Positions 21,547-36,669 of a DNA stretch of 64,000 nt are shown piece after piece; the first letter of the stretch is position 1, and every line of letters begins with the position of its first letter. Both the position numbers and the translations under genes were made by a program. Location of the stretch: the IMG/VR virus record IMGVR_UViG_3300008116_000004. One strand, written 5' to 3'. This stretch comes from a virus. The notes beneath the pieces were generated by a model that saw only the letters and a program-made list of their open reading frames with translations, was not told the DNA's origin and did no database searches.

Positions 21547-21551
21547 TTGAA

Positions 21552-22109: not shown

Positions 22110-22120
22110 GACCGCTCTCC

Positions 22121-22720: not shown

Positions 22721-22736
22721 GGCATACTCAAAGAAA

Positions 22737-22811
22737 TGGAGCGGAGAATGGGATTCGAACCCACGACCGTCTGCTTGGCAAGCAGAAGCTCTACCCCTGA
22801 GCTACCTCCGC
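22737..22811 (-). tRNA. tRNA-Gly(GCC)
   Basis: GCC anticodon, U73-CCA. Confidence 0.95.
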
Positions 22812-22813
22812 AT

Positions 22814-22821
22814 TATAAATA
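22814..22821 (+). promoter_or_regulatory. T4-type late promoter
   Basis: TATAAATA about 20 nt upstream of the ATG at 22841. Confidence 0.7.
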
Positions 22822-22840
22822 TTTATTTGAGGGATACACT

Positions 22841-23137: not shown

Positions 23138-24294
23138 TTTATATATTTTTGTAAAGTATTGCGTATACCTAATTGAGTAAGATTTTGATTAAAAGAAATT
23201 GGATTCCAAGTACCATATTCAAATTTTTCTTTTAAATAGCCAAATTTTATAGTATCACTTTGTAAAATCATATCTACTAATTTTGAATTCTTTATTGCCT
23301 GATCTATTTTCAATTTACCATTATTTTTTGCCATTGACCAAAATCTAGTATCAAACGAAGATCCAGCATAATAATGCAGCATGATCATAGCTTCTACTTC
23401 GTTAATAGTATCAAAATAAAGATTATTAACCCTGTCTAGTGAAGCTTCACCTGTCCATAAACTAAAAGCAGATCTTTGAATTAAGTCCATAGTAGAAATT
23501 GATGTTGCTTCTAATGGTTCTAAAAAGAATGATGCATTACCGTTATAAGATATTCTTTTACTGTAATTTTCTTTTCTATAATAATTGCCAAAAGAAAATG
23601 TATTGGTAATTCCGCTAGGTACTAGATTAAACTCCTCAAAAATATTCTTTACATCTTCTTTTACTTCTTCTAATGTATTAATATTATTATTGTACAAGTA
23701 ACCAATAGAACATCTGTTCTGTAGGGGTATACCAAATACCCAACCATATGGTCTAGCTATAGTTAATGTATATTGAAATCTAGGATATTCCCACATACAT
23801 TGATTGACGTGCACTGAATTAACTGGAATATAATTTGATTCTATAAAATTATCTTTATTAATTTCCGGTTTACCAGAACAATCCATTATAAAGTCTGCAT
23901 CTATTTGATCTGATAATACATTTTTTTCTATAAATTTAAAACGTTTATTATTTTGCACTAATGAAAAAATATATTCTTGAAATTTAACTGCATTAAAATG
24001 TATACCAATATTAGGGGGAGAAAAATGATGATGAAATTCTTTTACGTTAGTTCCCCAGTTTTGTTTGTATATAGATTCTTTTACTGTACCGTCTAACTTT
24101 TTTAAATCTTGATAGGTAAACCCTATATTCTCATAAAGTGCTAGTGGAAAAACTAAATTAGACCCTTCACCAACTGCTTGTGGTTTAATATTATGGTCAA
24201 AATACCAATCAATATCCCAATCAGTCCAACGCATAAAATGAGTTGCTGAAAAAGCTCCTGCAGTACCTTTACCTATGATTGCTAATTTTTTCAT
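23134..24294 (-). CDS. Tryptophan halogenase-like FAD-dependent oxidoreductase
   Basis: IIGKGTAG, VGEGS, DCSG, GWVFGIPL, GNASFFLEPLEATS. Confidence 0.8.
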   Translation of the reverse strand: MKKLAIIGKGTAGAFSATHFMRWTDWDIDWYFDHNIKPQAVGEGSNLVFPLALYENIGFTYQDLKKLDGTVKESIYKQNWGTNVKEFHHHFSPPNIGIHFNAVKFQEYIFSLVQNNKRFKFIEKNVLSDQIDADFIMDCSGKPEINKDNFIESNYIPVNSVHVNQCMWEYPRFQYTLTIARPYGWVFGIPLQNRCSIGYLYNNNINTLEEVKEDVKNIFEEFNLVPSGITNTFSFGNYYRKENYSKRISYNGNASFFLEPLEATSISTMDLIQRSAFSLWTGEASLDRVNNLYFDTINEVEAMIMLHYYAGSSFDTRFWSMAKNNGKLKIDQAIKNSKLVDMILQSDTIKFGYLKEKFEYGTWNPISFNQNLTQLGIRNTLQKYIN

Positions 24295-24311
24295 TTTTTC
24301 TTTTTTGTAAT

Positions 24312-24386
24312 TGGTGGGTGATGAGAGGGTCGAACTCCCGACATTCTCGGTGTAAACGAGACGCTCTACCACTGAGCTAATCACCC
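24312..24386 (-). tRNA. tRNA-Val(UAC)
   Basis: TAC anticodon, CCA. Confidence 0.95.
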
Positions 24387-24393
24387 AAAATCA

Positions 24394-24501
24394 TTACATG
24401 CACAAGTCTTCATACTTAGTAGTGAACTGTCTATGTTTAGATTGCTCGCCATTAATATGATTGTACCACATAAAGTATAAAAAGTCTACTATTTTTTTCA
24501 T
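24394..24501 (-). CDS. 35-aa small ORF between tRNA-Trp and tRNA-Val
   Basis: MKKIVDFLYFMWYNHINGEQSKHRQFTTKYEDLCM; AAGGAAG upstream; contains a TAGACT-N17-TACAAT promoter-like site. Confidence 0.45.
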   Translation of the reverse strand: MKKIVDFLYFMWYNHINGEQSKHRQFTTKYEDLCM

Positions 24502-24517
24502 TTCATCTTCCTTTAAA

Positions 24518-24592
24518 TGGCACCAGGACCCAGCAACGATCTGGGAACTTCGGTTTTGGAGACCGACATTTTGCCAATTAAACTATCCCGGC
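24518..24592 (-). tRNA. tRNA-Trp(CCA), atypical T-loop
   Basis: TCGGT-CTCCAAA-ACCGA arm; T-loop ATCGTTG; G73-CCA. Confidence 0.8.
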
Positions 24593-24867
24593 TCTTTCTC
24601 TATTACGACACCGATATATTTCTTATTAACCAACACTCCTAAGAATGTTCCTAGAAACGCTCCAAGACCAGCAGGTATCAAAAGCATATTATTACCTACA
24701 TAGCCAATAATTGCAACACTATGTACTAAGAAAATAAACACACTAGTACTTGCAGATGCTATTGCACTATCATTCTGAATATGTCTAATATAGATAGCAT
24801 TGATAAAATCAACAATAAACATAGATAGGAATGCAAGCACTGCATTCAATAACAAAGAATCAAACAT
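24583..24867 (-). CDS. Small membrane protein
   Basis: Three hydrophobic segments; 3' end overlaps tRNA-Trp by 10 nt. Confidence 0.6.
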   Translation of the reverse strand: MFDSLLLNAVLAFLSMFIVDFINAIYIRHIQNDSAIASASTSVFIFLVHSVAIIGYVGNNMLLIPAGLGAFLGTFLGVLVNKKYIGVVIEKEPG

Positions 24868-24868
24868 G

Positions 24869-25516
24869 TTATCTCTTAATTAATTCATTAGTAAAATCTA
24901 AAAGAAGATCCCAATTAGAAGTCTTCTCTGGTTGCCATTTCTTCTTCATCCACGAATGACAACTATACCAGTTCTCATCTGCTTCCGGGTGTGAGCCAAT
25001 TAATCCTACGCGTCCCTGATAACCAGCCATAACATCGCCGTTAGGATAAGTAGCCACAACATCCATTCTACCGTTACCAACAATGCTACATCCATCATAC
25101 CAATAAATCCTCTCTTCATTACCTAACCAACTAACTTCGAGATCTTTTGGATGTGGTCTTCTTGTTTTTGAACCAGGGCGCCCCATAAATTGGACACAAT
25201 CACGACCTTTAACTAGGTCTAAGTATTTGCTTCCTGCCCAATAGGCACCCATACAAATACCAAGATAATGACCGCCATTATTAATATATTCTCTAATAGT
25301 ATCTTTATGATGTTTCATCACTTTATCAAAAGTGTCTACATCACCTACACCACCAGGAACAGCAATAACATCTACATCGTCAAAAAAATTATCATAAGGT
25401 ATTTTATGACGAGTAAAGATTTTAAATGTGTGCTGAGATTGTAATGCATTAATGATAGCATTAACGCCATCAACTGAGCATCTAGGATGATCTAAGAACA
25501 GCGCAATCTTACCCAT
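24869..25516 (-). CDS. BPL_N / class I glutamine amidotransferase-like protein
   Basis: VPGG, GGHYLGICMGAYWA, GSHPE. Confidence 0.75.
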   Translation of the reverse strand: MGKIALFLDHPRCSVDGVNAIINALQSQHTFKIFTRHKIPYDNFFDDVDVIAVPGGVGDVDTFDKVMKHHKDTIREYINNGGHYLGICMGAYWAGSKYLDLVKGRDCVQFMGRPGSKTRRPHPKDLEVSWLGNEERIYWYDGCSIVGNGRMDVVATYPNGDVMAGYQGRVGLIGSHPEADENWYSCHSWMKKKWQPEKTSNWDLLLDFTNELIKR

Positions 25517-25541
25517 TACAACCTCATTATTATACAACTAT

Positions 25542-26246
25542 TTATCGGAAGACATTACTTAATTTGTATAGGTAGCTTTTCAGTTTATAATGTTCTTTAT
25601 CTGTTATTAATCTAAAAACGTGATCGTATTCTTCGTCTTTTACTGGAACTATTTTAACTAGAGGTGTCCCAGCTTTCAATATTTCTTTCTTACCTAATGC
25701 ATGCCAATAAACTTGTACATTAATATTATTTGATAACTGAGTATCTAAGAGTCCTGGTATTACACTAAATCTTGTTTCATTATCATACCATACTGGTAAG
25801 AATAAAACTTTATAACCTTTTGGTACATTAACATACCAAGGTGTACTAAATTTCAAGACAGTTTGAAGTGTATTAGGTCTTGGAAAATGTTCAAAAAATA
25901 TTTTTTCGTTAAAAAAATCAATTTCTTTTTTTGTAACACCTTTGAAATTTAAATTTTTTATAACATAATCATCAGCATTTAATGGTGCATTCCACTCAAA
26001 CCATTCACCGGTATTGTTTGCTTCTATCGAAAAATCTTGCCAAGTTCTAATAATATAACCAGTTTTACTATAGTCTATTATACCTGGGCAGTTTTTAATA
26101 TTAGCTTTAGCATCTGGAGATATTTTTACTTTCTTAAATGTTTCAATAAAGTTTGTTTTACTTAATTGAGGAGGATAGTGTTCAAGAGCTACAGGTATAT
26201 CTGTATAAAATTCTATAATAGGTTTAGTCTTAAACATATTAAACAT
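25542..26246 (-). CDS. Phage hypothetical protein (paralog of 26587-27312)
   Basis: KNCPGIIDY..GY..RTWQD, PVWYDNE.RF.VIPGLL, LKAGTP. Confidence 0.7.
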   Translation of the reverse strand: MFNMFKTKPIIEFYTDIPVALEHYPPQLSKTNFIETFKKVKISPDAKANIKNCPGIIDYSKTGYIIRTWQDFSIEANNTGEWFEWNAPLNADDYVIKNLNFKGVTKKEIDFFNEKIFFEHFPRPNTLQTVLKFSTPWYVNVPKGYKVLFLPVWYDNETRFSVIPGLLDTQLSNNINVQVYWHALGKKEILKAGTPLVKIVPVKDEEYDHVFRLITDKEHYKLKSYLYKLSNVFR

Positions 26247-26261
26247 AACTACTCCACTAAA

Positions 26262-26338
26262 TGGCGACCGCTACCGGGCTCGAACCGGCGACCTCTAGCG
26301 TGACAGGCTAGCGCTCTGACCGACTGAGCTAAGCGGCC
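26262..26338 (-). tRNA. tRNA-Asp(GUC)
   Basis: GTC anticodon, G73-CCA. Confidence 0.95.
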
Positions 26339-26344
26339 TTGTAC

Positions 26345-26420
26345 TGGAGGGGAAGATGGGACTCGAACCCACATAAAAAGGTTTTGCAGACCTCTGCCTA
26401 GCCATTCGACGCACTTCCCC
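26345..26420 (-). tRNA. tRNA-Cys(GCA)
   Basis: GCA anticodon, U73-CCA. Confidence 0.9.
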
Positions 26421-26511
26421 AAATATAGAGACCGTTGACTCGCCGGATAGTCTCACTGGTTAATTCCAGGTGCCTGTTGCGCTTTTCTATAGAGGCGTGG
26501 CCGGTACATAA

Positions 26512-26587
26512 TGGTGCCCACAACAAGATTCGAACTCGTGACCTACTGATTACTAATCAGTTGCTCTACCAACTGAGCTATGTGGGC
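26512..26587 (-). tRNA. tRNA-Thr(AGU), rare A34
   Basis: ACTGA-TTAGTAA-TCAGT arm; G1:C72, C2:G71; CCA. Confidence 0.9.
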
Positions 26588-27312
26588 TAAAAATGATTAT
26601 TTTTTAATAAACTAAATTTCTTAAAAGTAGAAGCGTCTTCTTTTGTAACTTGCCTTACTGTAATATTATTTTTTTCCATCTTAAATGGTATAATTTTTAC
26701 AATAGGAGTGCCAGCTTTAAGTACTTCTTCTGTACCTAATTTATTCCACTGAATAGCGACATTTATCTGTTGATCTGTACCAGCTGGAAGTAATCCTGGT
26801 ATTACTGTAAATCTTTCTTCATTATCATACCAGACGGGTAAAAATAATGCACCATAATCTTTAGGAAGTTTTATACACCATCTTGTAGGTATCTGAAGAA
26901 TAAACTTTAAAGTATTATCTCTATAAAAATAAGGTGAATACATCTCTTTTGGAAAATGAGATATTTCATTATTAAAATATGTATTTTGTTTTAAATATTC
27001 TGATGCATATTTTTCAGTATTCGTAGCTGACTTCCATTCATAGTACTCACCATCTTCTGATGTGCGAATATGAATATCTTGCCACAATCTTATTACATGT
27101 CCATATTTGTAATATTCGATAATAGCAGGGCAGTTTTTTAAATTTACTTCTGAAGTATAATTAAGTTCTGGGTTTAGTTTTGATGGTTTAATATTCTTAA
27201 AGATATTTGCAATATCTTTTTTACCATTATCTGGTGGAAATGTTTCTAATAATTCTGGAATGATAGGGTAGAATTCTATCTTTGGTTTATTAAAAAAACT
27301 AAACAATGTCAC
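26587..27312 (-). CDS. Phage hypothetical protein (paralog of 25542-26246)
   Basis: Shared motifs KNCP, RLWQD, PVWYDNE, KAGTP. Confidence 0.7.
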   Translation of the reverse strand: MTLFSFFNKPKIEFYPIIPELLETFPPDNGKKDIANIFKNIKPSKLNPELNYTSEVNLKNCPAIIEYYKYGHVIRLWQDIHIRTSEDGEYYEWKSATNTEKYASEYLKQNTYFNNEISHFPKEMYSPYFYRDNTLKFILQIPTRWCIKLPKDYGALFLPVWYDNEERFTVIPGLLPAGTDQQINVAIQWNKLGTEEVLKAGTPIVKIIPFKMEKNNITVRQVTKEDASTFKKFSLLKNNHF

Positions 27313-27322
27313 ACCTTTAAAC

Positions 27323-27383
27323 TGGGCGGGAGAAAAGGATTTAACCTTTTAATTGCAGCTGCTGTTTCCAAACAGCTCTCCCG
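27323..27383 (-). ncRNA. 61-nt D-armless tRNA-like RNA or tRNA pseudogene
   Basis: CGGGAGA/TCTCCCG acceptor + C-CCA, T-like arm AAAGG-TTAAAT-CCTTT, one internal hairpin GCTGT-TTGGAA-ACAGC. Confidence 0.6.
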
Positions 27384-27386
27384 ATA

Positions 27387-27461
27387 TGGTGCCCAAAGAG
27401 AGGATTGAACTCCCGACCTATCGCTTACAAGGCGATTGCACTACCGCTGTGCTATTTGGGC
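27387..27461 (-). tRNA. tRNA-Thr(UGU)
   Basis: TGT anticodon, CCA. Confidence 0.95.
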
Positions 27462-27472
27462 AATCATTTTAT

Positions 27473-27501
27473 ATGATAGATTAAATTATAATATAATGCA
27501 A
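27473..27501 (-). promoter_or_regulatory. Sigma70-like early promoter for tRNA-Thr block
   Basis: TTGCAT-N17-TATCAT. Confidence 0.6.
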
Positions 27502-27506
27502 CTATT

Positions 27507-28424
27507 TTAAGACCAGGTAGCTTTAAATCCACCAGATGCACCTGCTGCACCATTACCTAAATTACCTGCGGAACCTGCACCGCCTGACCCAACAGTATAT
27601 CTAATAACTAATCCCGGGGTAATTTGCGCTCTGGTAAAAGTTAAAGACGCATAAGCACCACTACCACCTGATCCACCAGCTGCTCTGTTAGGGTTTGCAT
27701 TTTTACCTGATTGAAAGTCACTATAACCACCTGATCCGCCACCACCTCCTGGTGCTCTACCAGGAGAACCGTTTTTACCATTTATATTATGCGCACCCCT
27801 TGTACCACCTGTACCACCGTTAGGAGCATTCCCACCATTAGCACCAGTACCACCACCTGCATCACCATTACCACCTGAATTGCCGTTTGTTTTTACTATT
27901 GTACTAGTAGTGAAAGTACCTGTATTAGAAGCAGTGCCGCCGCCACCACCAGAACCATTCTGGTTACCATATCTATAACCACTAGTTCCACCTCCACCAC
28001 CTGTTGCAGTAAGTGTAGAAGAATTTATTACTATAGAAGATGTACCACCACTCCCACCAGATGCTTTAACTGAATCATGATCTGCAGCACCTGCTCCACC
28101 CCCTGCACCCCATATTTCAAATTTTATATTGTTTCTAAAAACCGGTATAGTAAAAGATTTGTTAGATCCAGCTGTGTTATCTGTAGAAGAACCTGGTGGA
28201 GCAGGATCAGAAGAAGTTTTATCGTAGAAGTCAGAAAAACTTATAGGAGCTGTTGTTGTAAACCTACCTTGATTAAAAGGATAGAGTGATCCGTAAAAGG
28301 TTACACCTTTGTAATCGTTAACATCTCTTGTTTTACCTAAAGGATCATTACCTGAACCAAAAACATTAAATATTTCCGATACTGATATAGATTGACCTGA
28401 GGTAGGTGTATTAGCTGATGGCAT
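27507..28424 (-). CDS. Glycine-rich virion/tail-fibre-like protein
   Basis: WGAGGGAG, poly-Gly tracts, VGSGGAG; N-terminus PTSGQSISVSEI. Confidence 0.65.
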   Translation of the reverse strand: MPSANTPTSGQSISVSEIFNVFGSGNDPLGKTRDVNDYKGVTFYGSLYPFNQGRFTTTAPISFSDFYDKTSSDPAPPGSSTDNTAGSNKSFTIPVFRNNIKFEIWGAGGGAGAADHDSVKASGGSGGTSSIVINSSTLTATGGGGGTSGYRYGNQNGSGGGGGTASNTGTFTTSTIVKTNGNSGGNGDAGGGTGANGGNAPNGGTGGTRGAHNINGKNGSPGRAPGGGGGSGGYSDFQSGKNANPNRAAGGSGGSGAYASLTFTRAQITPGLVIRYTVGSGGAGSAGNLGNGAAGASGGFKATWS

Positions 28425-28432
28425 TTTTATTC

Positions 28433-28930
28433 TTACCTTTTAATATATAAAAGTTCTGACCCTTCGGGTACTGTAATGTTTGCCACTTTACCATTAGGTA
28501 TTCTTGCATAATTAAATTGCTTTAGTTGCTTATCATTAATTATTGCAGTACCTTTTACACATATTATATTTTGTTCTTCCTCTGTACCTTGTATGGATGT
28601 ACTTTGTTTAATAAGTACCATATCAAAAAATTTATCTGCAGGTATAGGGTTAATGCATATCCAAGTTGCACCTCTGTCACCTGCAACAAACTTATATGGT
28701 TTTTTATAAAAGTATCTAATATCCCAGGCATTAGATACATCTGATTTGTTATGATATGAACCGTCACCGTTATATACTGTACCACTACCTTCTAGTAAAT
28801 AGAATATTTGGCTAAATCTTGCATCTGAAGAGACATCTTCTTGAGTATACTCATAAAAGTCATTAGAGGTAATATGACCTCTACACATTGCAAAACCTTT
28901 ACAAACTGAAAGTGTGCTTATAAGTTTCAT
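28433..28930 (-). CDS. Hypothetical protein (cupin-like)
   Basis: ORF track; FYLLEGSG. Confidence 0.55.
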   Translation of the reverse strand: MKLISTLSVCKGFAMCRGHITSNDFYEYTQEDVSSDARFSQIFYLLEGSGTVYNGDGSYHNKSDVSNAWDIRYFYKKPYKFVAGDRGATWICINPIPADKFFDMVLIKQSTSIQGTEEEQNIICVKGTAIINDKQLKQFNYARIPNGKVANITVPEGSELLYIKR

Positions 28931-29271
28931 ATTTCAACTTCCAGTGAATCACCTAATTTTAATTCATCTGCAGTATGTATAGAATGAACAGGTCTAACAT
29001 CCGACATATTTAAATTATATTCTTTATTAGAAATACTTTCAAAAAAATCATGTGATAATTTATCTGATTTAATTTTTTGATCAAGATAATCAGAACCAAT
29101 AAGTGCTAATAGTTTTACTAACTCTTCTTCTGTATCAGCATTAAAATTTACTGAATTAAACGAATATGGTGTAGTTTCATAATGTTTACCTTCATGTAAA
29201 CAGCTAAAAGAAACTATAAGAGAATTACTCTCTCTATCATAATTTTCAATTTTTACTTTAACTGATTCCAT
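28927..29271 (-). CDS. Hypothetical protein
   Basis: ORF with AGGTG RBS behind a late promoter. Confidence 0.6.
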   Translation of the reverse strand: MESVKVKIENYDRESNSLIVSFSCLHEGKHYETTPYSFNSVNFNADTEEELVKLLALIGSDYLDQKIKSDKLSHDFFESISNKEYNLNMSDVRPVHSIHTADELKLGDSLEVEI

Positions 29272-29299
29272 AACATATCACCTTTTTGTTAATATGTTA

Positions 29300-29307
29300 T
29301 ATTTATA
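29300..29307 (-). promoter_or_regulatory. T4-type late promoter
   Basis: TATAAATA on minus strand upstream of 29271. Confidence 0.7.
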
Positions 29308-29401
29308 AATGCAGGCTAACCGTGGCACTACGCGAGTCTATTAAGCGACCAACCTTAATAAATATTACTGGCTCAATGTTGAGCTGTATGGAGGATCCAA
29401 G

Positions 29402-29635
29402 ATGGATATTCTAAAAACTATTAAAACATGGGCAGGTGCTCTTGCTGATGTGGCAGTATCAGTTCTCGCACTTATGATTGTTGTAGGTGTATTATTTAAG
29501 GGTATTGCAATTCCATTTCTACCTAACGTAGATGTTATTGCTAATGTAACATCAATTGTTAAGTCACTAGGCTCAGAAGGACTTGTTGGTTTAGTCGCTA
29601 TCTGGGTATTGCATAGTATATGGAAAAATAGATAA
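29402..29635 (+). CDS. Small two-TM membrane protein
   Basis: GGAGG RBS; hydrophobic; followed by a terminator. Confidence 0.7.
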   Translation: MDILKTIKTWAGALADVAVSVLALMIVVGVLFKGIAIPFLPNVDVIANVTSIVKSLGSEGLVGLVAIWVLHSIWKNR

Positions 29636-29661
29636 TAGTTTAATTGAAAGTTTTTATTATT

Positions 29662-29692
29662 AAAGCTCTCATCGTAAGGTGAGAGCTTTTTT
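29662..29692 (+). terminator. Rho-independent terminator
   Basis: AAAGCTCTCATC-GTAA-GGTGAGAGCTTT followed by a T-run. Confidence 0.8.
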
Positions 29693-29695
29693 ATT

Positions 29696-29771
29696 TGGTG
29701 CGGTGTACGGGAATCGAACCCATCTCTGGACCTTGAAAGGGTCTTATCCTAAACCGATAGACGAACACCGC
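29696..29771 (-). tRNA. tRNA-Glu(UUC)
   Basis: TTC anticodon, CCA. Confidence 0.9.
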
Positions 29772-29772
29772 A

Positions 29773-29846
29773 TGGCTGGGGGACAGGGACTCGAACCCCG
29801 ATAACAGGAATCAAAATCCTAGGTCCTACCATTAGACGATCCCCCA
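29773..29846 (-). tRNA. tRNA-Gln(UUG)
   Basis: TTG anticodon, U1:A72, G73-CCA. Confidence 0.9.
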
Positions 29847-29852
29847 AAAAAA

Positions 29853-29926
29853 TGGTCCTCCGACAAGGTATCGATCCTTGGTCTCTCGATTATCAGTCGA
29901 GTGCTCTACCTTTGAGCTATCAGAGG
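29853..29926 (-). tRNA. tRNA-Ile(GAU)
   Basis: CTCGA-CTGATAA-TCGAG arm; T-loop ATCGATA. Confidence 0.9.
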
Positions 29927-29927
29927 A

Positions 29928-30002
29928 TGGTGCAAATAGTTGGAGTCGAACCAACCTTAAAAGCCTTATGAGGACTCCTCGACACCTTGCCGACCTACTT
30001 GC
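29928..30002 (-). tRNA. tRNA-Met(CAU), probably elongator
   Basis: CTCATAA loop, paired G1:C72, CCA. Confidence 0.8.
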
Positions 30003-30003
30003 A

Positions 30004-30078
30004 TGGTACCGTCTCCCAGAATTGAACTGGATCTTTCAGAGCCACAATCTGACGTGACTACCACTACACTAAGACGGC
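30004..30078 (-). tRNA. tRNA-His(GUG) lacking G-1, with A73
   Basis: GTG anticodon; acceptor GCCGTCT/AGACGGT-A-CCA; -1 base is T. Confidence 0.9.
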
Positions 30079-30079
30079 A

Positions 30080-30156
30080 TGGAGCTCCCAAGAGGACTCA
30101 AACCCCTAACCTCCACGTCCGTAGCGTGGCGCTCTATCCAGTTGAGCTATGGAAGC
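30080..30156 (-). tRNA. tRNA-Arg(ACG)
   Basis: CCACG-CTACGGA-CGTGG arm. Confidence 0.9.
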
Positions 30157-30159
30157 TTA

Positions 30160-30501
30160 TTAATTGCAGATTGTATTGTAAATCATTTGATCAGCAGCAG
30201 TCTTAATAGAATGAAATCTATCTAACACGTTATAGTTAACTCTTGGAGGATCATCTCTATAACTTTCTATAGCTACTAATGTTTTATACTGCTTGGTAAT
30301 ACAGTCCCACTCTACTTTGGCAAGTAACCATGTACGATCATATCGTAGGAGTTTTTGCCAGACTGTAACTCTATCTGCTAGTTTAATTGTAGGTTGTAAT
30401 ATTTTTATTTGATAATGTTTAGTAGTTTCAATCACTAACCATTCTTCTGCATAAGCAGGTAAATAAAATAACGAAAATAATATAACTAATATTTTTTTCA
30501 T
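30160..30501 (-). CDS. Secreted hypothetical protein
   Basis: MKKILVILFSLFYLPAYA signal; two Cys. Confidence 0.6.
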   Translation of the reverse strand: MKKILVILFSLFYLPAYAEEWLVIETTKHYQIKILQPTIKLADRVTVWQKLLRYDRTWLLAKVEWDCITKQYKTLVAIESYRDDPPRVNYNVLDRFHSIKTAADQMIYNTICN

Positions 30502-30518
30502 TAAATATTTATGTAAAT

Positions 30519-30595
30519 TGGTCTGCCTAGTAGGATTCGAACCTACGACCCCTTGACTCCAAATCAAGTGCGCTACCAGACTGCGCTACAGGCAG
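30519..30595 (-). tRNA. tRNA-Pro(UGG)
   Basis: C1:G72, A73; loop TTTGGAG (A37). Confidence 0.9.
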
Positions 30596-30598
30596 ATA

Positions 30599-30949
30599 TT
30601 AAATTAAATTCTGTGCTAATACCATACAGCTTATCCATACCCATATAGTATTAAACCCTACAAGAGTAGGTAGTAGTTTTTTATTACTAGCCCATATTAA
30701 CGTTAAACTAGTTGCTAAAGTAAAGAAATATAACCACCATATTTGTATATTAAAAATTAAACCAGGAACAATAATGATTGCTTTTGCAAGCCAACTAGCA
30801 AACTCTACTTTGTTATAGTTAGTCCAATATTCTCTAGTAAACCACATCTTATAACAATTTTTAATATTATTAAAACCACTATGACTATATGTTATTGAAA
30901 TACTAATAAACCATAAAATGGTAGCAATAATTATTTGTTGTTGTGTCAT
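30599..30949 (-). CDS. Membrane protein
   Basis: Several hydrophobic segments. Confidence 0.65.
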   Translation of the reverse strand: MTQQQIIIATILWFISISITYSHSGFNNIKNCYKMWFTREYWTNYNKVEFASWLAKAIIIVPGLIFNIQIWWLYFFTLATSLTLIWASNKKLLPTLVGFNTIWVWISCMVLAQNLI

Positions 30950-30960
30950 AATAAATCCTT

Positions 30961-31036
30961 TGGTAGATCCATCCGGACTCGAACCGGAAACCTTTCGGTT
31001 AAAAGCCGCTTGCTCTACCTATTGAGCTATGGATCC
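30961..31036 (-). tRNA. tRNA-Lys(UUU)
   Basis: CTTTTAA loop, CCA. Confidence 0.9.
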
Positions 31037-31091
31037 AAAAGAAAAAGGGGAGCACTAAGCCCCCCTTTATGAACCCATAACGGTGACTTAG
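31037..31091 (-). terminator. Terminator with overlapping alternative (antiterminator) hairpin, upstream of tRNA-Lys
   Basis: Terminator GGGGGGC-TTAGT-GCTCCCC-TTTTTCTTTT; alternative hairpin CTAAGTCACC...GGGGGCTTAG starting 3 nt after the stop of 31095-31349. Confidence 0.7.
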
Positions 31092-31094
31092 ATA

Positions 31095-31349
31095 TTAAGC
31101 AAAAGCTTCTGCACCGAGAACTGCATAACCAGCAGCGACGACTCGACGTGAAGCCTTACCAAGACGGTACTTGTTGGTTACACGACCTTTAGTATCGGTG
31201 TGCTTGTTGAGGTAAATAGGGAAGCCTTCTGAACGAAGAGTATGGATAACTCCACGAGCATTAGCAATTCCAAAGCGAGCAGAAATCTGCTTGCCAGTAA
31301 GTTCTTCACCAGACATAAGAGCTTCGAGGACACGATTAGTAGTAGTCAT
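31095..31349 (-). CDS. Winged-HTH-like DNA-binding protein
   Basis: VLEALMSGEELTGKQISARFGIANARGVIHTLRSEGFPI; GGAG RBS. Confidence 0.65.
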   Translation of the reverse strand: MTTTNRVLEALMSGEELTGKQISARFGIANARGVIHTLRSEGFPIYLNKHTDTKGRVTNKYRLGKASRRVVAAGYAVLGAEAFA

Positions 31350-31402
31350 ATGTTTTCTCCATAATATAGAAATGAGCACTGTGCTCTGTTATTAACATTA
31401 AT

Positions 31403-31431
31403 AATATACGATAGTTACATAATTAATGCAA
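31403..31431 (-). promoter_or_regulatory. Sigma70-like early promoter
   Basis: TTGCAT-N17-TATATT. Confidence 0.7.
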
Positions 31432-31440
31432 CAATAAATT

Positions 31441-31633
31441 AGCGATAGTCTTTTTTGTGTCAGGAAGACTATCAAACCCCGTATAGACAGCCCATCCCAC
31501 GTTTCGTCTATAGCGGAAGCAGAGTATACCGAGCAGGAGGCCCGAGTGGGTCTGCTACTAAACCTCACGCTTTGGTCTAGTTTGTCTGAAATTAAACGAC
31601 TACCCAGGTATGACTACCGTAGTATTCAGATCA
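31441..31633 (-). ncRNA. Candidate structured ncRNA(s) downstream of tRNA-Tyr
   Basis: GC-rich, no credible ORF; stems GATAGTCTT/AAGACTATC, TATAGAC/GTCTATA, AGCAG/CTGCT, TCTGAA/TTCAGA. Confidence 0.55.
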
Positions 31634-31636
31634 AAA

Positions 31637-31721
31637 TGGTGGGAGAGGAAGGACTCGAACCTACGAAGTCATAGACAAGAGATTTACAGTCTCCCCCCTT
31701 TGCCGCTCGGGACACTCTCCC
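31637..31721 (-). tRNA. tRNA-Tyr(GUA)
   Basis: CTGTAAA loop, long variable arm, CCA. Confidence 0.95.
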
Positions 31722-31732
31722 AAAAATTTAAA

Positions 31733-31888
31733 GCTGGGTTACTCATTCCCAGCAGTCGATCTTCAAACGTGTCGACAGGTTCAGGACTTAAGACGTCTGT
31801 GCAGATGGAACCTCAGCCGTCCACTAGCTATATCCTCACTCAATTGCACAGCCATTAGTGAGGGATTAATAGGGATTCCAACCCCTAC
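31733..31888 (-). ncRNA. Candidate multi-hairpin ncRNA between tRNA-Ser and tRNA-Tyr
   Basis: Five consecutive stems: GCTGGG/CCCAGC, GTCGA/TCGAC, AGGTTC/GAACCT, CCTCACT/AGTGAGG, TAGGG/CCCTA. Confidence 0.55.
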
Positions 31889-31893
31889 AATAT

Positions 31894-31983
31894 TGGCGGA
31901 AAGGGTGAGATTCGAACTCACGGTACCTTTGCAGGCACTTCGGTTTTCAAGACCGACGGATTAAACCACTCTCCCACCTTTCC
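31894..31983 (-). tRNA. tRNA-Ser(UGA)
   Basis: CTTGAAA loop, long variable arm, G73-CCA. Confidence 0.95.
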
Positions 31984-31988
31984 AATAT

Positions 31989-32063
31989 TGGCTCCGTGGG
32001 TAGGATTCGAACCTACAACCGCTCGATTAACAGTCGAGAGCTCTACCATTGAGCTACCACGAA
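31989..32063 (-). tRNA. tRNA-Asn(GUU)
   Basis: CTCGA-CTGTTAA-TCGAG arm, G73-CCA. Confidence 0.95.
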
Positions 32064-32070
32064 AAACTTC

Positions 32071-32209
32071 TTGTCTCTACAAGGATACATCAGCTATCTA
32101 ACTTCCAATACCACTCGTTATTACAGCTGATTACCGATTCTGGGAAGCCTACCTCTACGTATAGTAATGCGCGCACGCTTCGGGCTCTGATGTACCCATG
32201 AAGAGACAA
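32071..32209 (-). ncRNA. Candidate 139-nt RNA closed by a ~23-bp terminal stem
   Basis: TTGTCTCT-T-CA-T-GGGTACATCAG pairs with CTGATGTATCC-T-TG-T-AGAGACAA; the G-U pair favours the minus strand. Confidence 0.6.
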
Positions 32210-32225
32210 CTTACGTTGTCCTTCT

Positions 32226-32302
32226 GCCCTGCTGGAAACCACTTGTACGCTCATTCGAGTCCACGTACCAGTCAGGGGTTGTTCTTATACACTCGGAACA
32301 AC
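32226..32302 (-). ncRNA. Candidate structured RNA at the 5' end of the tRNA transcript
   Basis: GTTGTTC/GAACAAC hairpin, then nested CCCTG/CAGGG, CTGG/CCAG, GTACG/CGTAC stems. Confidence 0.45.
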
Positions 32303-32312
32303 ATCGATTATT

Positions 32313-32341
32313 AATATAGTAAATTTGCAAATTATAATCAA
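32313..32341 (-). promoter_or_regulatory. Sigma70-like early promoter for the ncRNA/tRNA array
   Basis: TTGATT-N17-TATATT. Confidence 0.65.
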
Positions 32342-32357
32342 CTAAAAAAGGACCATT

Positions 32358-32428
32358 AAAAAAGCGGCTCTAGTTTCCTAGGCCGCTCAACGTTTGTAAG
32401 ACTATAACTATCTAACTTACGTTGAGCG
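32358..32428 (-). terminator. Attenuator: intrinsic terminator (32358-32387) mutually exclusive with a 10-bp antiterminator (32419-32428 pairing 32384-32393)
   Basis: AGCGGC-CTAG-GAAA-CTAG-A-GCCGCT-TTTTT; CGCTCAACGT/ACGTTGAGCG shares AGCG with the terminator 5' strand. Confidence 0.8.
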
Positions 32429-32521
32429 CTCCATATCTTCTGACCATACGCCAGCATTCGGAGCAATCTGTCCGTTAAATGTTTGGCGATAGGTGTGTTT
32501 CAGACACGATAGAGTTAGCAT
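32417..32521 (-). CDS. 34-aa leader peptide containing all 20 amino acids
   Basis: MLTLSCLKHTYRQTFNGQIAPNAGVWSEDMERST*; GGAA upstream; last codons overlap the antiterminator. Confidence 0.7.
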   Translation of the reverse strand: MLTLSCLKHTYRQTFNGQIAPNAGVWSEDMERST

Positions 32522-32568
32522 TTAATGTTCCGTTTTGTAGTGACAAAATGGTATATTACCATTAAATC

Positions 32569-32576
32569 TATTTATA
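32569..32576 (-). promoter_or_regulatory. T4-type late promoter upstream of the leader ORF
   Basis: Perfect TATAAATA about 48 nt upstream of the leader ATG. Confidence 0.75.
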
Positions 32577-32655
32577 CGATTTTGACACTACACTCAGCAA
32601 AAAAAAATAATTTAATTGTAATGGGAGGGGAATGACCCCTCCCAATAATTACTTA

Positions 32656-33063
32656 TTATTCAGCACCAGCGATGAACTTACGAACAGGGGCTGTAAGAGA
32701 ATTTACATACTCTTGTGAATCATCAAGCATTTGATCAATGACCGGTTGAAGTTCGGCACGCTTAGCCAAACGAGCTTCCTCACGCTGAGATGAAGATACA
32801 CGCTTCATAGTGTCAAGGTTCTTAGCCTTAATGCCAACATCCTTAAGCAGCTTTGAAACAGATACTTCCTTTGTCTTAACCTTAGCAGCCTTTACTGCCT
32901 TAGGAACATCTCCCTTTGCCAATTTCTTATTAGCATTATACAAATAGACCTGAGCGTTAGACTTAGTAACGTTCAAAGTTTTCATGATCTTTGCGACCAT
33001 ATCTTCTTTGTTATAATCAGGTTCAACTTTGATGAAGTTGATAACAGTATTGATATTAGACAT
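32656..33063 (-). CDS. Basic hypothetical early protein
   Basis: GGAG RBS; Lys/Ala-rich; GC hairpin downstream (32622-32644). Confidence 0.7.
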   Translation of the reverse strand: MSNINTVINFIKVEPDYNKEDMVAKIMKTLNVTKSNAQVYLYNANKKLAKGDVPKAVKAAKVKTKEVSVSKLLKDVGIKAKNLDTMKRVSSSQREEARLAKRAELQPVIDQMLDDSQEYVNSLTAPVRKFIAGAE

Positions 33064-33130
33064 TCACATTCTCCATTTTGATGTCACATATATGATTATA
33101 GTTCATTTCGAAAATAAGGCAACTGATATT

Positions 33131-33397
33131 TCAGCAGTTACCCAGAATTTCTCTAGCAGCCGGGTAATCGATAAGTTCGGCCAGATCATCCAAGATACCG
33201 TCCCAAGAGAAGTAGCCGTTTCCAGCATGATTCTTCTGGACGATCTTAAGAGTATCCATAGCTGAAAGTTTCAAAGTCGTATCATTCTTAAGAATGTTAC
33301 CAGCAAATTCCAGTACAAAATCTTCGTCTGAATAATTCATGCGAGTTCCCTTCTTCATAAACGTATCGCTCATTTCGTTACTCTCTGTTCTCATCAT
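33131..33397 (-). CDS. Hypothetical protein (possibly leaderless)
   Basis: ATG lies 7 nt after the -10 box of the promoter at 33404-33432. Confidence 0.55.
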   Translation of the reverse strand: MMRTESNEMSDTFMKKGTRMNYSDEDFVLEFAGNILKNDTTLKLSAMDTLKIVQKNHAGNGYFSWDGILDDLAELIDYPAAREILGNC

Positions 33398-33403
33398 ATT
33401 ATT

Positions 33404-33432
33404 AATATAGCGGTATTTGGAAATTAATGCAA
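33404..33432 (-). promoter_or_regulatory. Sigma70-like early promoter
   Basis: TTGCAT-N17-TATATT. Confidence 0.7.
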
Positions 33433-33611
33433 CTTATTTTTTAATGTATTCTAAGAGAATTTTGAAGAAATTAGTTTTATATTTGTAAACCATTGATTCA
33501 CAAGTAGAATCCATGTAAAAAAGATGGAATTTTGGTGTAAATTTATAGAGAATATTATGGATAAAATTTGGCATATGCATTTTAAGGTTCTCCATCATTC
33601 TTTCTATTATA

Positions 33612-33640
33612 ATAATAGTATTTTTAGGAAAATAATGCAA
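33612..33640 (-). promoter_or_regulatory. Sigma70-like early promoter
   Basis: TTGCAT-N17-TATTAT. Confidence 0.65.
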
Positions 33641-33654
33641 CTGTTATTTTCACA

Positions 33655-33718
33655 AAAAAACCCAATAAAATCAAGGAGTTACAAAAAAAGTTAACTCATT
33701 GAAATCATTGGGTTTTTT
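33655..33718. repeat. Imperfect inverted repeat made of two IHF-consensus-like sites
   Basis: AAAAAACCCAAT..AATCAAGGAGTTA ... TAACTCATTGAAATCATTGGGTTTTTT. Confidence 0.6.
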
Positions 33719-33751
33719 AGGATTACGGATTCTTATGGATTATTACGTATT

Positions 33752-34000
33752 TTAATGCAGTTTTTTACGATATTTTGTGAAATCTACAACGTTTTCATTA
33801 GAAATTTCTAATATAGGATCACCAGTATATTCTTTAAGTCTAAACATTCTATTCTCTTGACCTTCAGGTAGTTCCTGTCCGAGAAGCTGCCATATCTCAG
33901 ATTCGTAAATTACTGATCGACCTGATTGCAATTGAGATGCAAAATAGGATAGAATAACATCTGCTACCCATTCTGCATACTCCTCATCTTCATCCATCAT
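33752..34000 (-). CDS. Hypothetical protein
   Basis: Coupled to the helicase stop; C-terminus NVVDFTKYRKKLH. Confidence 0.6.
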   Translation of the reverse strand: MMDEDEEYAEWVADVILSYFASQLQSGRSVIYESEIWQLLGQELPEGQENRMFRLKEYTGDPILEISNENVVDFTKYRKKLH

Positions 34001-35376
34001 ACTAGTAGCTCACTAAAACGAGATTTCTTTTCTTCACTAATAGCTGGTTTAGGATTATTAAAGACTTTTGTATCGTCGATAAGATTATCTTGTGCTGACT
34101 GTTCTGTGTTAAATAATCTCATCTTTGCTCTATCAATACCAACTACAAATTTCTTATACAATGTAGGATCATTATAACGGTTCTTTAATTGCTTAACCAT
34201 AATCTGACTAACAGCTTCTAACTCATCTGTACTAACTAATGCAAACATCAAATCTGCTGTAGCAGGTAGACCAAAGGACTCAGCAGTATCTGTAAGTTCA
34301 ACGTCGGAATTGCCATAACCACCTCTGGTAGTCTGTGTAGCAGATACAATAGGCACATTAAACTCAACGGCAAGACCACGTAGTTCTTCAGCGATAGCTT
34401 TGATGTACGTGTATGAGTTAACATTAGAACCAGAACGAATTCTGCTACTACTACATATATTAAGATAGTCAATATAGATGACATCGGGTATAAAATTGCG
34501 CTTAATTCTAAGTTCATTAATTAAATGCCTGAAATTAGCTGATCCTGCAGATGCTGTAGGATACTCTTTAATAATTAGCTTACCAACAGTCTTCTCTTTT
34601 ACTCTACCAATCTTCTTATCATAGACGTCTTTTGGCATAATAGTAAGTTCGTCTACTGTTACATTAAGAAGATTAGCATCGATACGTTCTGCAATCTTCT
34701 CTTCTGACATTTCCATTGTAATGTAGAGAACGTTCCTGCCACTCACTAGATTGTGAGAAGCACAATGACACATAAACAAAGACTTACCAACACCAGTGCC
34801 GGCCAGAGCGATATTGAGAGTCTTGCGGACCAAGCCGCCTTTCGTAATCTTGTTAAAGAATTCCAGGTCGAAGGGAATATGTTCTTCCCTGCGATGATAG
34901 AAATCATATCGATTATCGCTATTAAGAAAATAGTCATGACCCACGCTAACATCAAAAGACACCCCAAGAGCATCGCTGAGAAGAGTGGGTATGGAGCCAG
35001 TGCTTGAAGTTCCGGACTTATCATCGAGGATTTTAATCGATGCCATAATTGCATTGTAAATAGCCTTATCCTGACAGAACTTTTCTGTACTATCTAATAA
35101 CCATTGTATGTCCGTGTTATCTGTTTGTAGATCTTCGATTGTACGTTTAGAATCTTTAAACGTTACTTCTGATAGACCTTCTTTATTATTCAACTCAAGA
35201 AACAACACTTCCTTAGTAGGAGTGTTGTTATACTTTTGTACATAATCGGAAATTAATTTATAGACAACCTTATCTGGTTGGTTATGAAAATATTCATCCT
35301 TAAGAAAAGGTAGAACCTTTCTTGCAAATGCTTCGTTATAAATTAAATGCGAAAGTATCGTCTTTTCAATCATCAA
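33997..35376 (-). CDS. 41: Replicative DNA helicase, T4 gp41-like
   Basis: ALAGTGVGKSL Walker A, IIKEYPTASA, IDYLNI, SATQTTR, KQLKNRY. Confidence 0.95.
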   Translation of the reverse strand: MMIEKTILSHLIYNEAFARKVLPFLKDEYFHNQPDKVVYKLISDYVQKYNNTPTKEVLFLELNNKEGLSEVTFKDSKRTIEDLQTDNTDIQWLLDSTEKFCQDKAIYNAIMASIKILDDKSGTSSTGSIPTLLSDALGVSFDVSVGHDYFLNSDNRYDFYHRREEHIPFDLEFFNKITKGGLVRKTLNIALAGTGVGKSLFMCHCASHNLVSGRNVLYITMEMSEEKIAERIDANLLNVTVDELTIMPKDVYDKKIGRVKEKTVGKLIIKEYPTASAGSANFRHLINELRIKRNFIPDVIYIDYLNICSSSRIRSGSNVNSYTYIKAIAEELRGLAVEFNVPIVSATQTTRGGYGNSDVELTDTAESFGLPATADLMFALVSTDELEAVSQIMVKQLKNRYNDPTLYKKFVVGIDRAKMRLFNTEQSAQDNLIDDTKVFNNPKPAISEEKKSRFSELLV

Positions 35377-35621
35377 AGATCTTTCTTTGTGCTCTGTTTA
35401 ACAACTACTGGAATTAACAAATCACCCCAGTAGCCACCTTCTACATGGTGACGAGAGACACGTTGTAATTCTACTGCAAGTCCTAACTCTACACAACGAA
35501 TAACAGCATTATTAACACGGTGTAGATCATTACCAAGCTGACGAATAGCAGATGTTTGCTCATCATTCATAAATGATGTAAACTCTTCTGAGCGTTCCTT
35601 AACCTTAGGTTTATTATTCAT
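35373..35621 (-). CDS. Small hypothetical protein
   Basis: EQTSAIRQLGNDLHRVNNAV...GGYWGDLLIP; fills the uvsX-41 gap. Confidence 0.6.
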   Translation of the reverse strand: MNNKPKVKERSEEFTSFMNDEQTSAIRQLGNDLHRVNNAVIRCVELGLAVELQRVSRHHVEGGYWGDLLIPVVVKQSTKKDL

Positions 35622-36669
35622 CATCGTCATCCTGTTCTTCTTGTTGAATCAATGCACCACCCACTAAAGTATATTTGTTTTTAATATAGTTTGCAAAGTC
35701 TGTCTTAGAGAAAATTTCTTTCCATACTGCTCCATTATCTTCAATATCAGCAGCTCTCATTTTCTGACCAGATACTTCACCGGTAGTGCGATCAACAATC
35801 TGATACCATCCGTTAGATGGTTTAACGACATAACCACCCTCAATAGCCAAATCCAAGAGTCCGGACCACTTCTTGATCCCACCTTCATAGCTAACTGTGA
35901 TTGGAATCTTAGACTTCTCTTTAACATAACGTGACTTTTCTACATTAATAATAAAATTATAACCGGCAATCTCACCGCCGTCTTTTTCTTGTTGACGACC
36001 AAGAATCCAGATAGTATCTGCTGAGTAGTAAATACCTGTACCACCACCAACAATTGCCTTAGGGAACATTCCAATTTCCATATATGTATGGTTAACAACG
36101 ATCAATGGAATGTCTTTAAGAGTAAGATGAGGTGTAACCATACGGAAGAGTGACTTAAGAGACTTTGCACGAGACATATCTGCAACAGACTTCTCGTTCA
36201 TAGTATCTTCAACTTCTTTCTTGGAAGCCAAGTTACCAACAGAGTCTATGACAATAACGACCTTATCATCACGTTTTACTTCTGCAAGCTGTTTCATAAT
36301 ATCAAACTTAAGTTGTTCGATATCAGTGATAGGTGTATGAAGCACTCTATCCATATCAATATTGAATGACTCAAAGTACCCCTTAGGAGTACCAAACTCT
36401 GAGTCATAGAATAAAAGAACACTATCTGGGTACTGCTTCATATAAGCCGATGCCATAAGGAGAGAAAAGGCAGACTTAAAATGTTTAGATGGTCCAGCTA
36501 GAACTGTAAGACCAGGTGTCAAGCCTCCATCTACACTACCTGATAGTGCTACGTTCACCATAGGAACGTTAGTTTGAATCATATCTTTCTTACCGTAAAT
36601 TTTAGAATCGGTAAGCACTGCTGTATCTTCTATAGTAGAATTTTTAATCAAACGGTTAATAAGTGACAT
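35614..36669 (-). CDS. uvsX: RecA-like recombinase UvsX
   Basis: AGPSKHFKS, FYDSEFG, IDSVGNLASKKE, GGTGIYYSAD. Confidence 0.95.
   Translation of the reverse strand: MSLINRLIKNSTIEDTAVLTDSKIYGKKDMIQTNVPMVNVALSGSVDGGLTPGLTVLAGPSKHFKSAFSLLMASAYMKQYPDSVLLFYDSEFGTPKGYFESFNIDMDRVLHTPITDIEQLKFDIMKQLAEVKRDDKVVIVIDSVGNLASKKEVEDTMNEKSVADMSRAKSLKSLFRMVTPHLTLKDIPLIVVNHTYMEIGMFPKAIVGGGTGIYYSADTIWILGRQQEKDGGEIAGYNFIINVEKSRYVKEKSKIPITVSYEGGIKKWSGLLDLAIEGGYVVKPSNGWYQIVDRTTGEVSGQKMRAADIEDNGAVWKEIFSKTDFANYIKNKYTLVGGALIQQEEQDDDDE

Follow-up and report, generated by a model that had tools for sequence, protein, structure and literature searches.

In the trpL, hisL, leuL, thrL, pheL and ilvGMEDA leaders, a short 5′-leader ORF carries its own ribosome-binding site and ends in a stop codon next to the antiterminator 5′ strand, an intrinsic terminator competes with that antiterminator, and the sequence of the peptide is unconserved. 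A run or cluster of codons for the regulating amino acid, or for several in the multivalent ilvGMEDA and thr leaders, defines these leader-peptide attenuators, and the genes downstream encode biosynthetic enzymes. The pheST (pheM) attenuator and the T-box place a decision between terminator and antiterminator ahead of genes of the translation apparatus, in both cases synthetases, and respond to charged or uncharged tRNA; pheM uses Phe codons, whereas the T-box, which has Stem I and T-box motifs and no ORF, binds tRNA directly.

Among phages, the T4 tRNA cluster encodes stable RNAs (species 1 and 2, rnaC/rnaD) that are processed from tRNA precursors and are not known to contain a conserved ORF or a terminator switch. 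The PR′-tR′ region of lambdoid phages gives a short late transcript (lambda 6S RNA; StxS), with tRNA genes lying beyond it in Stx phages (PMC7547250). A terminated leader RNA with a small ORF can also act in trans as an sRNA, as described for rnTrpL (PMC6614838). Phage tRNA arrays are regarded as a means to sustain translation when host tRNAs are depleted or cleaved (PMC11464382, PMC11555353). Limited text searches returned no described attenuator or ribosome-coupled terminator switch ahead of tRNA genes or phage tRNA arrays.

Layout of the locus and its relatives

The window (the whole 64,000-nt stretch of viral DNA that was analysed) contains 26 tRNAs. On its minus strand, a compact unit precedes a long tRNA array, and its features are given below in the direction of transcription.

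32656-33063, minus strand: upstream ORF of 135 aa, ending just 5′ of the leader unit
32623-32643, minus strand: GC-rich hairpin directly past the stop of the 135-aa ORF, without an immediate U-run
32569-32576, minus strand: T4-late-type promoter box TATAAATA, a sequence match
32547-32563, minus strand: 5′ stem-loop of 17 nt at the predicted transcript start
32521-32531, minus strand: Shine-Dalgarno-like GGA, 6-7 nt 5′ of the AUG, together with the 5′ strand of helix P2
32417-32521, minus strand: 34-codon ORF with an ATG start and its stop codon at 32419-32417
32426-32519, minus strand: domain I, a long irregular hairpin formed from nearly the whole ORF
32381-32432, minus strand: stop-codon hairpin (candidate antiterminator), a perfect 10-bp stem (32428-32384) plus a 2-3 bp extension over an internal loop
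32358-32387, minus strand: intrinsic terminator, a GAAA-capped 10-bp stem with one A bulged, then U6 at 32363-32358
32344-32360, minus strand: 3′ strand of helix P2 (32350-32360), followed by another U-run (32344-32349)
32313-32341, minus strand: sigma-70-like (early-type) promoter 3′ of the terminator, with 9/12 consensus matches
32070-32305, minus strand: second conserved structured RNA, GC-richer, ~235 nt, between the early-type promoter and tRNA-Asn
31989-32063, minus strand: tRNA-Asn, first of the long array

The late box, the ORF, the stop-codon hairpin and the GAAA-loop terminator with its U-tract had all been predicted from the bare sequence, and each is present there at the positions listed. 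The same is true of the separate early promoter 3′ of the terminator, which the original prediction had entered as a caveat and which corresponds to the sigma-70-like match at 32341-32313.

The adjoining 459-aa protein is a gp41-type helicase whose best named relatives (Stenotrophomonas phage DLP_6 and cyanomyoviruses) are ~64% identical, and the public runs that contain the stretch are mainly freshwater or lake metagenomes. Together, these affinities mark the source as an uncultured freshwater T4-like phage. Neither the leader nor the 135-aa upstream ORF had a DNA or protein match in the phage record collection.

Relatives of the leader were sought through the helicase neighbourhood, by exact words and with a protein profile, and 14 copies, representing 13 distinct ORF variants, were found in viral and metagenome contigs. 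Close copies share 79-90% identity (L157, L182, L001, which equals L081, L003, L086, L088, L085, L186, L210/L212, L211 and L239; L086 is identical to L087 in the leader, and L211 to L213). The sole divergent copy is L004, with ~59% identity in the ORF. The parts of the leader are conserved among these copies, and a tRNA array lies 3′ of it in every copy whose contig extends far enough. A comparison of the regions 5′ of tRNA arrays in relatives had been proposed at the outset, and it returned a conserved unit at the array head in 14 related contigs. The gene upstream of the leader in L004 differs from that in the other copies, so the leader travels with the RNA cluster and not with the upstream gene. 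No such leader was found in L005 or L006, which have helicases ~80% identical and tRNA arrays of their own, and no second copy was found in the window.

Several other matches were set aside. The exact-word matches in L082-L084, L089 and L237 are chance matches, as are most of the 120 metagenome loci from one word scan and most loci of another, and one word match in a Desulfobacterales MAG was assumed to be chance as well. The profile search, run against 1.84 billion proteins, gave three true relatives of the ORF (28, 29 and 34 aa); no DNA source was located for one 29-aa homolog. Two further profile matches proved on inspection to be translated repeat arrays with a short AGVW-like motif, and the other matches, also multi-stretch, were treated as spurious.

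At the 5′ boundary of the unit, the hairpin at 32623-32643 looks like a terminator and would shield the leader from upstream transcription; a comparable hairpin lies 5′ of the promoter box in L157, L210/L212, L085, L186 and L239. The word TATAAATA, in T4-type late units the box read by a gp55-type late sigma factor, is depleted in the window (four copies vs. 11.7 expected by chance). Its exact form is found as the box in seven leader copies (the window, L157, L210, L212, L085, L239 and L004), and the remaining copies, about half, have a TATATAT/TATATAA variant. At the 3′ boundary, the sigma-70-like promoter sequence at 32313-32341 is kept in homologs, and the second U-run at 32344-32349 also occupies the UP-element position of that promoter. 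The RNA at 32070-32305 is conserved in L001, L003, L004 and L239, where it contains a compensated hairpin, and further unannotated structured RNAs lie inside the same tRNA array.

RNA structure, reading frame and terminator

Judged from the aligned copies, selection on the leader at the RNA level is certain. The window leader has a fold z-score of -5.7. In alignment A5 (12 sequences), 93.4% of consensus cells are paired and eight pairs have changed on both sides, a degree of covariation that was reached by 0 of 500 shuffles and to which all slid controls were far inferior. The 5′ stem-loop is preserved despite unrelated sequences in the homologs, with changes on both sides in 3-5 sequences per pair. 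Five of the seven pairs of helix 2, which lies within the ORF in domain I, are compensated, as are three stem pairs of the stop-codon hairpin; the stop-codon stem of L004 has a wholly different sequence and still pairs. The terminator is near-invariant in the close group, and L004 retains the GAAA loop and U6 on a terminator stem that covaries.

A stretch of ~36 nt in the core of the ORF (~32439-32474) is near-invariant in nucleotides, third positions included. Since helices that covary also lie inside the ORF, RNA-level constraint dominates there. L239 has two base changes in an otherwise “invariant” loop. Rfam gave nothing meaningful, riboswitches and T-box included, on 32050-32620 (E up to 10) or on 20000-36000 (E up to 1). 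A GAAA-tetraloop receptor was considered in domain I, where the word UAUGG is present, and was rejected because the opposite strand misfits the 11-nt receptor.

Helix P2 pairs the 11 bases that end in the A of the AUG, GGA included, with the last Us of the U-tract and the next eight bases (32360-32350). Compensating changes are seen in L085/L186 (two adjacent pairs), L087 and L211, and in 10 of 12 copies pairing is stronger between cognate than between non-cognate strands; P2 is absent in L088 and weak in L004. Both domain I and P2 bury part of the start region. Because P2 can form only in RNA that continues past the terminator, its conservation suggests that such read-through RNA is made and has a role; another possibility is a functional RNA that ends at the second U-run. 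This helix, which sequesters the Shine-Dalgarno region, had not been foreseen in the original prediction.

None of the 13 distinct variants interrupts the ORF, whose ATG and TAA never vary and whose length is 34-35 codons; its sole indel is a 3-nt, in-frame insertion in L004. A count of the codons that read as sense in the window but as stop in one or more homologs gives 0 of 34 for the ORF frame, compared to 5, 4, 5, 1 and 2 for the five control frames of the same bases. The control frames give an expectation of 3.6-4.7 stop gains (P ~0.01-0.03), more than the ORF frame shows. The duplex of GGA with the anti-Shine-Dalgarno sequence is predicted at -3.0 to -5.9 kcal/mol in all copies (median -3.9 for the long genes of this phage, -1.15 for random ATGs).

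The peptide itself evolves differently from a conserved protein. Variable ORF columns are spread evenly over the three codon positions (14/13/14), pN/pS is ~0.85 (range 0.4-1.9) with no excess of synonymous change, and the BLOSUM similarity to L004 is not above that after random change at the same columns (P ~0.2). Its middle stretch has G, Q, P, A, G and W as invariant residues. The frame is thus open without constraint on the protein, and selection, if anything, would act on translation itself. An open frame around an unconstrained peptide is the pattern of a regulatory leader ORF; the evidence for this assignment is moderate and not strong, since the bases concerned are also under RNA constraint. 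Homologs that conserved the peptide, or that lacked the alternative hairpin, had been named in advance as findings that would speak against a leader switch; the peptide is unconserved as a protein, and the covarying hairpin is present in every copy.

In each copy, the 5′ strand of that hairpin has the stop codon at its apical end. The U-tract follows ~60 nt after the stop codon, a spacing like that of trpL in E. coli. Hairpin and terminator draw on the same bases. While the perfect 10-bp stem shares only 3-4 bases with the terminator, the hairpin folded alone, as it would be before the 3′ strand of the terminator is made, extends over the internal loop to -20 to -27 kcal/mol. It then covers 7-9 of the 10 bases of the terminator 5′ strand in all 13 variants, L004 included, and the terminator, at -16.4 kcal/mol, is the less stable of the two. 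The overlap that had been predicted is therefore real, but its extent was understated. The G-rich bases of the hairpin extension also serve the domain I basal helix as its 3′ strand, so that three pairings compete in a chain, as in classical attenuators.

Folding models were less uniform. In equilibrium folds at full length, a shortened hairpin and most of the terminator coexist. Masking a ribosome footprint at the stop codon gives the full terminator a probability of 1.0. Profiles of how accessible the terminator 5′ strand is with the mask at each ribosome position, calculated on RNA truncated at the terminator loop, are not alike among homologs and hardly vary along the window ORF. The masked-folding check that had been suggested gave terminator formation with a ribosome on the stop codon and inconsistent switching among homologs. 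A ribosome-coupled switch is kinetically plausible, but the calculations fall short of demonstrating one.

At low depth, riverine metatranscriptome contigs from close relatives span 32358-32512; the 5′ end and the gaps in coverage are uninformative, as the relatives are divergent in those parts. In three runs, contigs stop at the U-tract (32358-32365), and in three runs contigs continue across the terminator into the following RNA. This gives a weak hint of partial termination at the U-tract, from contigs that show neither strand nor true ends and to which DNA carry-over may contribute.

Amino-acid coverage of the ORF

All 20 kinds of amino acid occur within the first 29 codons of the window ORF, which has 29 distinct codons among its 34, uses all four Thr codons and has 15 codons that end in G or C; these counts, on which the original prediction was built, are correct. 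No residue occurs more than four times, and there is no run of codons for one regulating amino acid. Among the window ORFs of 25-45 codons (n = 372), only the leader ORF has 20 kinds, the next best having 19 and the mode being 14. Under the composition of this phage, the chance of 20 kinds is ~1.2e-3 for 34 residues and ~1.4e-4 for 29, and roughly 0.05-0.4 such ORFs are expected per window. The leader ORF stands out within this window, but a scan of many windows should yield ORFs of this kind repeatedly by chance, so comparative data must decide.

Near-complete coverage had been expected to persist despite divergence. Every variant has 18-20 kinds, but all 20 are found in only four of the 13 (19 in seven, 18 in two), and the tests of retention are weak and model-dependent. 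Phe is lost in six variants and Asp in five, and 13 kinds are fixed by columns that are invariant in 11 close copies. L004 keeps 19 kinds, whereas random change at the same columns would be expected to leave ~16-17 (P 0.03-0.10). A tree simulation of coverage retention gave P ~0.015, a value biased toward significance because the simulation overcounts events (99, vs. a parsimony minimum of 58). A pairwise, leaf-to-leaf simulation was dropped as invalid for separating selection from ancestry. His occurs exactly once per variant, at codon 2 where codon 9 is not His (L087, L085, L186 and L239), and this apparent swap between codons 9 and 2 may represent a single event. Selection on amino-acid coverage is possible but unproven.

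Proposed mechanism, alternatives and comparison with known systems

As the best explanation we propose, tentatively and in the knowledge that it could well be wrong, a ribosome-coupled, attenuator-like cis leader that tunes late read-through into the ncRNA/tRNA cluster. The position of the ribosome on the 34-codon ORF would set how much of the transcription from the late-type promoter enters that cluster. Transcription would begin ~6-8 nt past TATAAATA, and the 5′ stem-loop would form. A ribosome could load at GGA/AUG while the ORF is being synthesized, and an ORF left untranslated would fold into the long hairpin of domain I. The last codons and the stop codon would provide the 5′ strand of the stable hairpin, which would sequester most of the terminator 5′ strand. 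With a ribosome on the last ~5 codons or the stop codon during synthesis of the terminator, the hairpin would be melted, the full terminator would form and an RNA of ~200 nt would be released. With a ribosome that lags or stalls, the hairpin would persist, the terminator would be weakened and polymerase would read through, after which the read-through RNA would close P2 and bury the ribosome-binding site. Promoter use, translation, the direction of the switch and the link to tRNA supply are steps that we infer, and starvation or anticodon nucleases as inputs to the leader are pure conjecture. We count against such a leader switch the separate promoter 20 nt downstream, which can drive the tRNAs while bypassing it, as well as the leaderless relatives with ~80% identical helicases and tRNA arrays, and the variant box in about half of the copies. 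On the same side stand the partial burial of the start region, the invariance of the ORF core at third positions, the coexistence of hairpin and terminator in full-length equilibrium folds, and the mask profiles that vary among homologs.

Much of the structural evidence would also suit a stand-alone structured small RNA gene of ~190-215 nt, a stable RNA of the tRNA/ncRNA cluster with its own promoter, 5′ hairpin and terminator, in which the frame would be open by chance, GGA would merely be a strand of P2 and the two 3′ hairpins would be arms of a four-way junction. The promoter-like box, 5′ hairpin and strong terminator are what such a gene would have; the fold z-score of -5.7, the covarying helices and an invariant core lacking codon-position bias point the same way. 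So do a P2 that closes the whole RNA and is followed by the second U-run in the main group, a terminator hairpin near-invariant beyond the needs of a plain terminator, and the other unannotated structured RNAs in the array. We take this possibility seriously but judge it rather unlikely: the frame is open in 13 variants where 3.6-4.7 stop gains are expected, with an invariant AUG and an in-frame indel, the competition between hairpin and terminator is retained in L004 despite differing sequences, P2 is possible only in RNA past the terminator, and Rfam, having no match, offers no positive identification. The open frame, the AUG and the Shine-Dalgarno-like site would likewise all be coincidence if the ORF were incidental to a riboswitch-like or protein- or tRNA-binding leader, with domain I as a sensor whose closing helix competes with the antiterminator, and the antiterminator in turn with the terminator. 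Such a leader would account for the classic succession from sensor to antiterminator to terminator, in which strands overlap, for the G-rich 3′ strand of the domain I basal helix that also extends the antiterminator, for the ~36-nt near-invariant core, which exceeds the needs of secondary structure, and for a position 5′ of RNA genes that is unusual for a translation-based sensor. On the other side, the leader falls in no known riboswitch, T-box or leader family, neither a ligand nor a partner suggests itself, and L239 alters two of the “invariant” loop bases; we consider this reading quite improbable.

It is very improbable indeed that the ORF is the gene for a functional 34-residue peptide, with RNA structure only tuning its expression. 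The open conserved frame, the Shine-Dalgarno-like site and AUG, and a conserved middle stretch with some conservative replacements in L004 are in keeping with a peptide gene, whereas pN/pS of ~0.85 with no excess of synonymous change, and similarity to L004 not above random substitution, are not. The conserved residues, moreover, coincide with nucleotide-invariant, base-paired RNA, and the search of 1.84 billion proteins gave three true relatives, the other matches being treated as spurious. A sub-case of the ribosome-coupled leader would have amino-acid coverage itself selected, so that stalling for almost any charged tRNA (starvation, anticodon nucleases) raises expression of the tRNA array. 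This sensor of general tRNA supply is favored by the 18-20 kinds present in all variants, compared to ~14 in comparable window ORFs, by retention of 19 kinds in L004 where ~16-17 are expected and the simulated P of ~0.015, and by the single His in every variant. We nevertheless give it only a slim prospect, given that 20 kinds are present in only four of 13 variants, with Phe and Asp lost in six and five, that 13 kinds are fixed by the invariant columns of 11 close copies, and that the tree simulation overcounts events. A chance of ~1e-3 per ORF, with 372 ORFs per window, is also unsurprising across a large scan, and any ORF would sense global translation speed, full coverage being unneeded for a switch.

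Should the ribosome-coupled switch that we favor prove correct, it would carry leader-peptide attenuation beyond amino-acid biosynthesis and into the supply of translation machinery. The further step, a general sensor of translation capacity whose codon-diverse ORF reports the relative pace of ribosome and polymerase for nearly every amino acid and tRNA, is a long shot. If it were true, slowed translation (starvation, tRNA depletion or anticodon nucleases) would raise late expression of the tRNA array, and ribosome-mediated attenuation would join tRNA supply and tRNA gene transcription in a feedback loop. Even with an incidental ORF, the leader would add an undescribed structured RNA, well conserved and with helices that covary, to a small clade of abundant freshwater T4-like phages, and at ~220 nt it is small enough for direct reporter constructs.

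Among described systems, the leader-peptide attenuators are closest. The phage leader shares with them the short ORF with a putative ribosome-binding site, the intrinsic terminator, the ~60 nt from stop codon to U-tract and the unconserved peptide, and its stop codon adjoins the 5′ strand of a candidate antiterminator that would compete with the terminator. It differs in that it has no run of regulatory codons and precedes tRNAs and ncRNAs in place of biosynthetic enzymes, in that the whole ORF forms a conserved hairpin with a nucleotide-invariant core, and in that an additional helix would bury the ribosome-binding site after read-through; it is also phage-encoded and stands behind a T4-late-type box. 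Because the defining codon run is missing and the genes that it would regulate are RNA genes, we file the leader as one that works like an attenuator and not as a member of any described family. The pheST attenuator and the T-box resemble it in deciding between terminator and antiterminator ahead of the translation apparatus and in the proposed input, tRNA or translation status. They differ from it in how that input is read (Phe codons in pheM, direct tRNA binding in the T-box) and in regulating synthetases where the phage leader would regulate tRNAs, and neither family was matched in Rfam.

Like PR′-tR′, the leader would couple a phage late promoter to a strong terminator within ~200 nt, giving a short RNA unless polymerase reads through. 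Read-through at PR′-tR′ is set by the Q antiterminator protein on polymerase, not by an ORF and a competing hairpin; the two have no similarity in sequence or structure and belong to different phage families. The likeness to the T4 stable RNAs is that of small structured RNAs beside the tRNA genes of T4-type phages. The precedent of rnTrpL differs in being a Trp-codon attenuator of a bacterial trp operon; a terminated leader RNA that acts in trans would reconcile the strong RNA-level conservation of the phage leader with function as a switch.

RNA structure around and downstream of the leader

Pairing in the leader, the conserved RNA that precedes the tRNA array on the minus strand, extends beyond its local hairpins. 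Positions 32344-32360 pair with 32521-32531 (minus strand), so that the ribosome-binding region of the short leader ORF and the bases directly 3' of the terminator U-tract form a long-range helix, for which compensating changes are seen in several homologs. This helix could lock the transcripts that have read through, provide a second terminator, or be the closing stem of a small RNA. Further downstream lies another conserved element:

32070-32305, minus strand: second conserved structured RNA, between the early-type promoter and tRNA-Asn; homologs in contigs L001, L003, L004 (4633-4757) and L239 (1690-1830)

This second RNA was found in all homologs that extend that far, and it had no match in Rfam. 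A hairpin in it carries a compensated pair (GTTGTTC/GAACAAC vs. GCTGTTC/GAACAGC).

Composition of the leader ORF and its late-promoter-type word

Within the ORF, the positions of His and of Gln or Lys at codons 2 and 9 are apparently swapped in four of the contigs with close leader copies (L087, L085, L186, and L239) relative to the other copies, and given this swap each ORF variant has exactly one His. The third-position columns of the two codons also co-vary (A/C, A/U, C/A, and U/A), a joint change in the aligned sequences that could equally reflect an RNA contact. Two inspected matches from the search with the ORF peptide profile, P0005 and P0007, fell beyond the true homologs and were treated as spurious: both are repeat arrays translated as protein, with repeated ...APHAGVWIEI... 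units, and were matched because a short AGVW-like motif is common to them and the core of the ORF.

The late-promoter-type word TATAAATA is rarer than chance in the whole window, with four copies on both strands together vs. 11.7 expected from shuffles, and three of the four are on the minus strand, which is the coding strand. Judged from sequence, this scarcity and strand placement fit a word set aside for late promoters.

tRNA arrays in the window and in related phages

None of the 26 tRNAs found within the window (1-64000, this part of the phage genome) is a tRNA-Phe; one is present in the related contigs L087, L213, and L006. A strong terminator lies inside the tRNA array (31068-31044, minus strand; region 31037-31431). 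The related phage contigs L005 and L006, whose helicase is ~80% identical, lack the leader despite having tRNA arrays downstream of that gene. In L006, its place is taken by a string of near-consensus sigma-70 promoters together with small genes.
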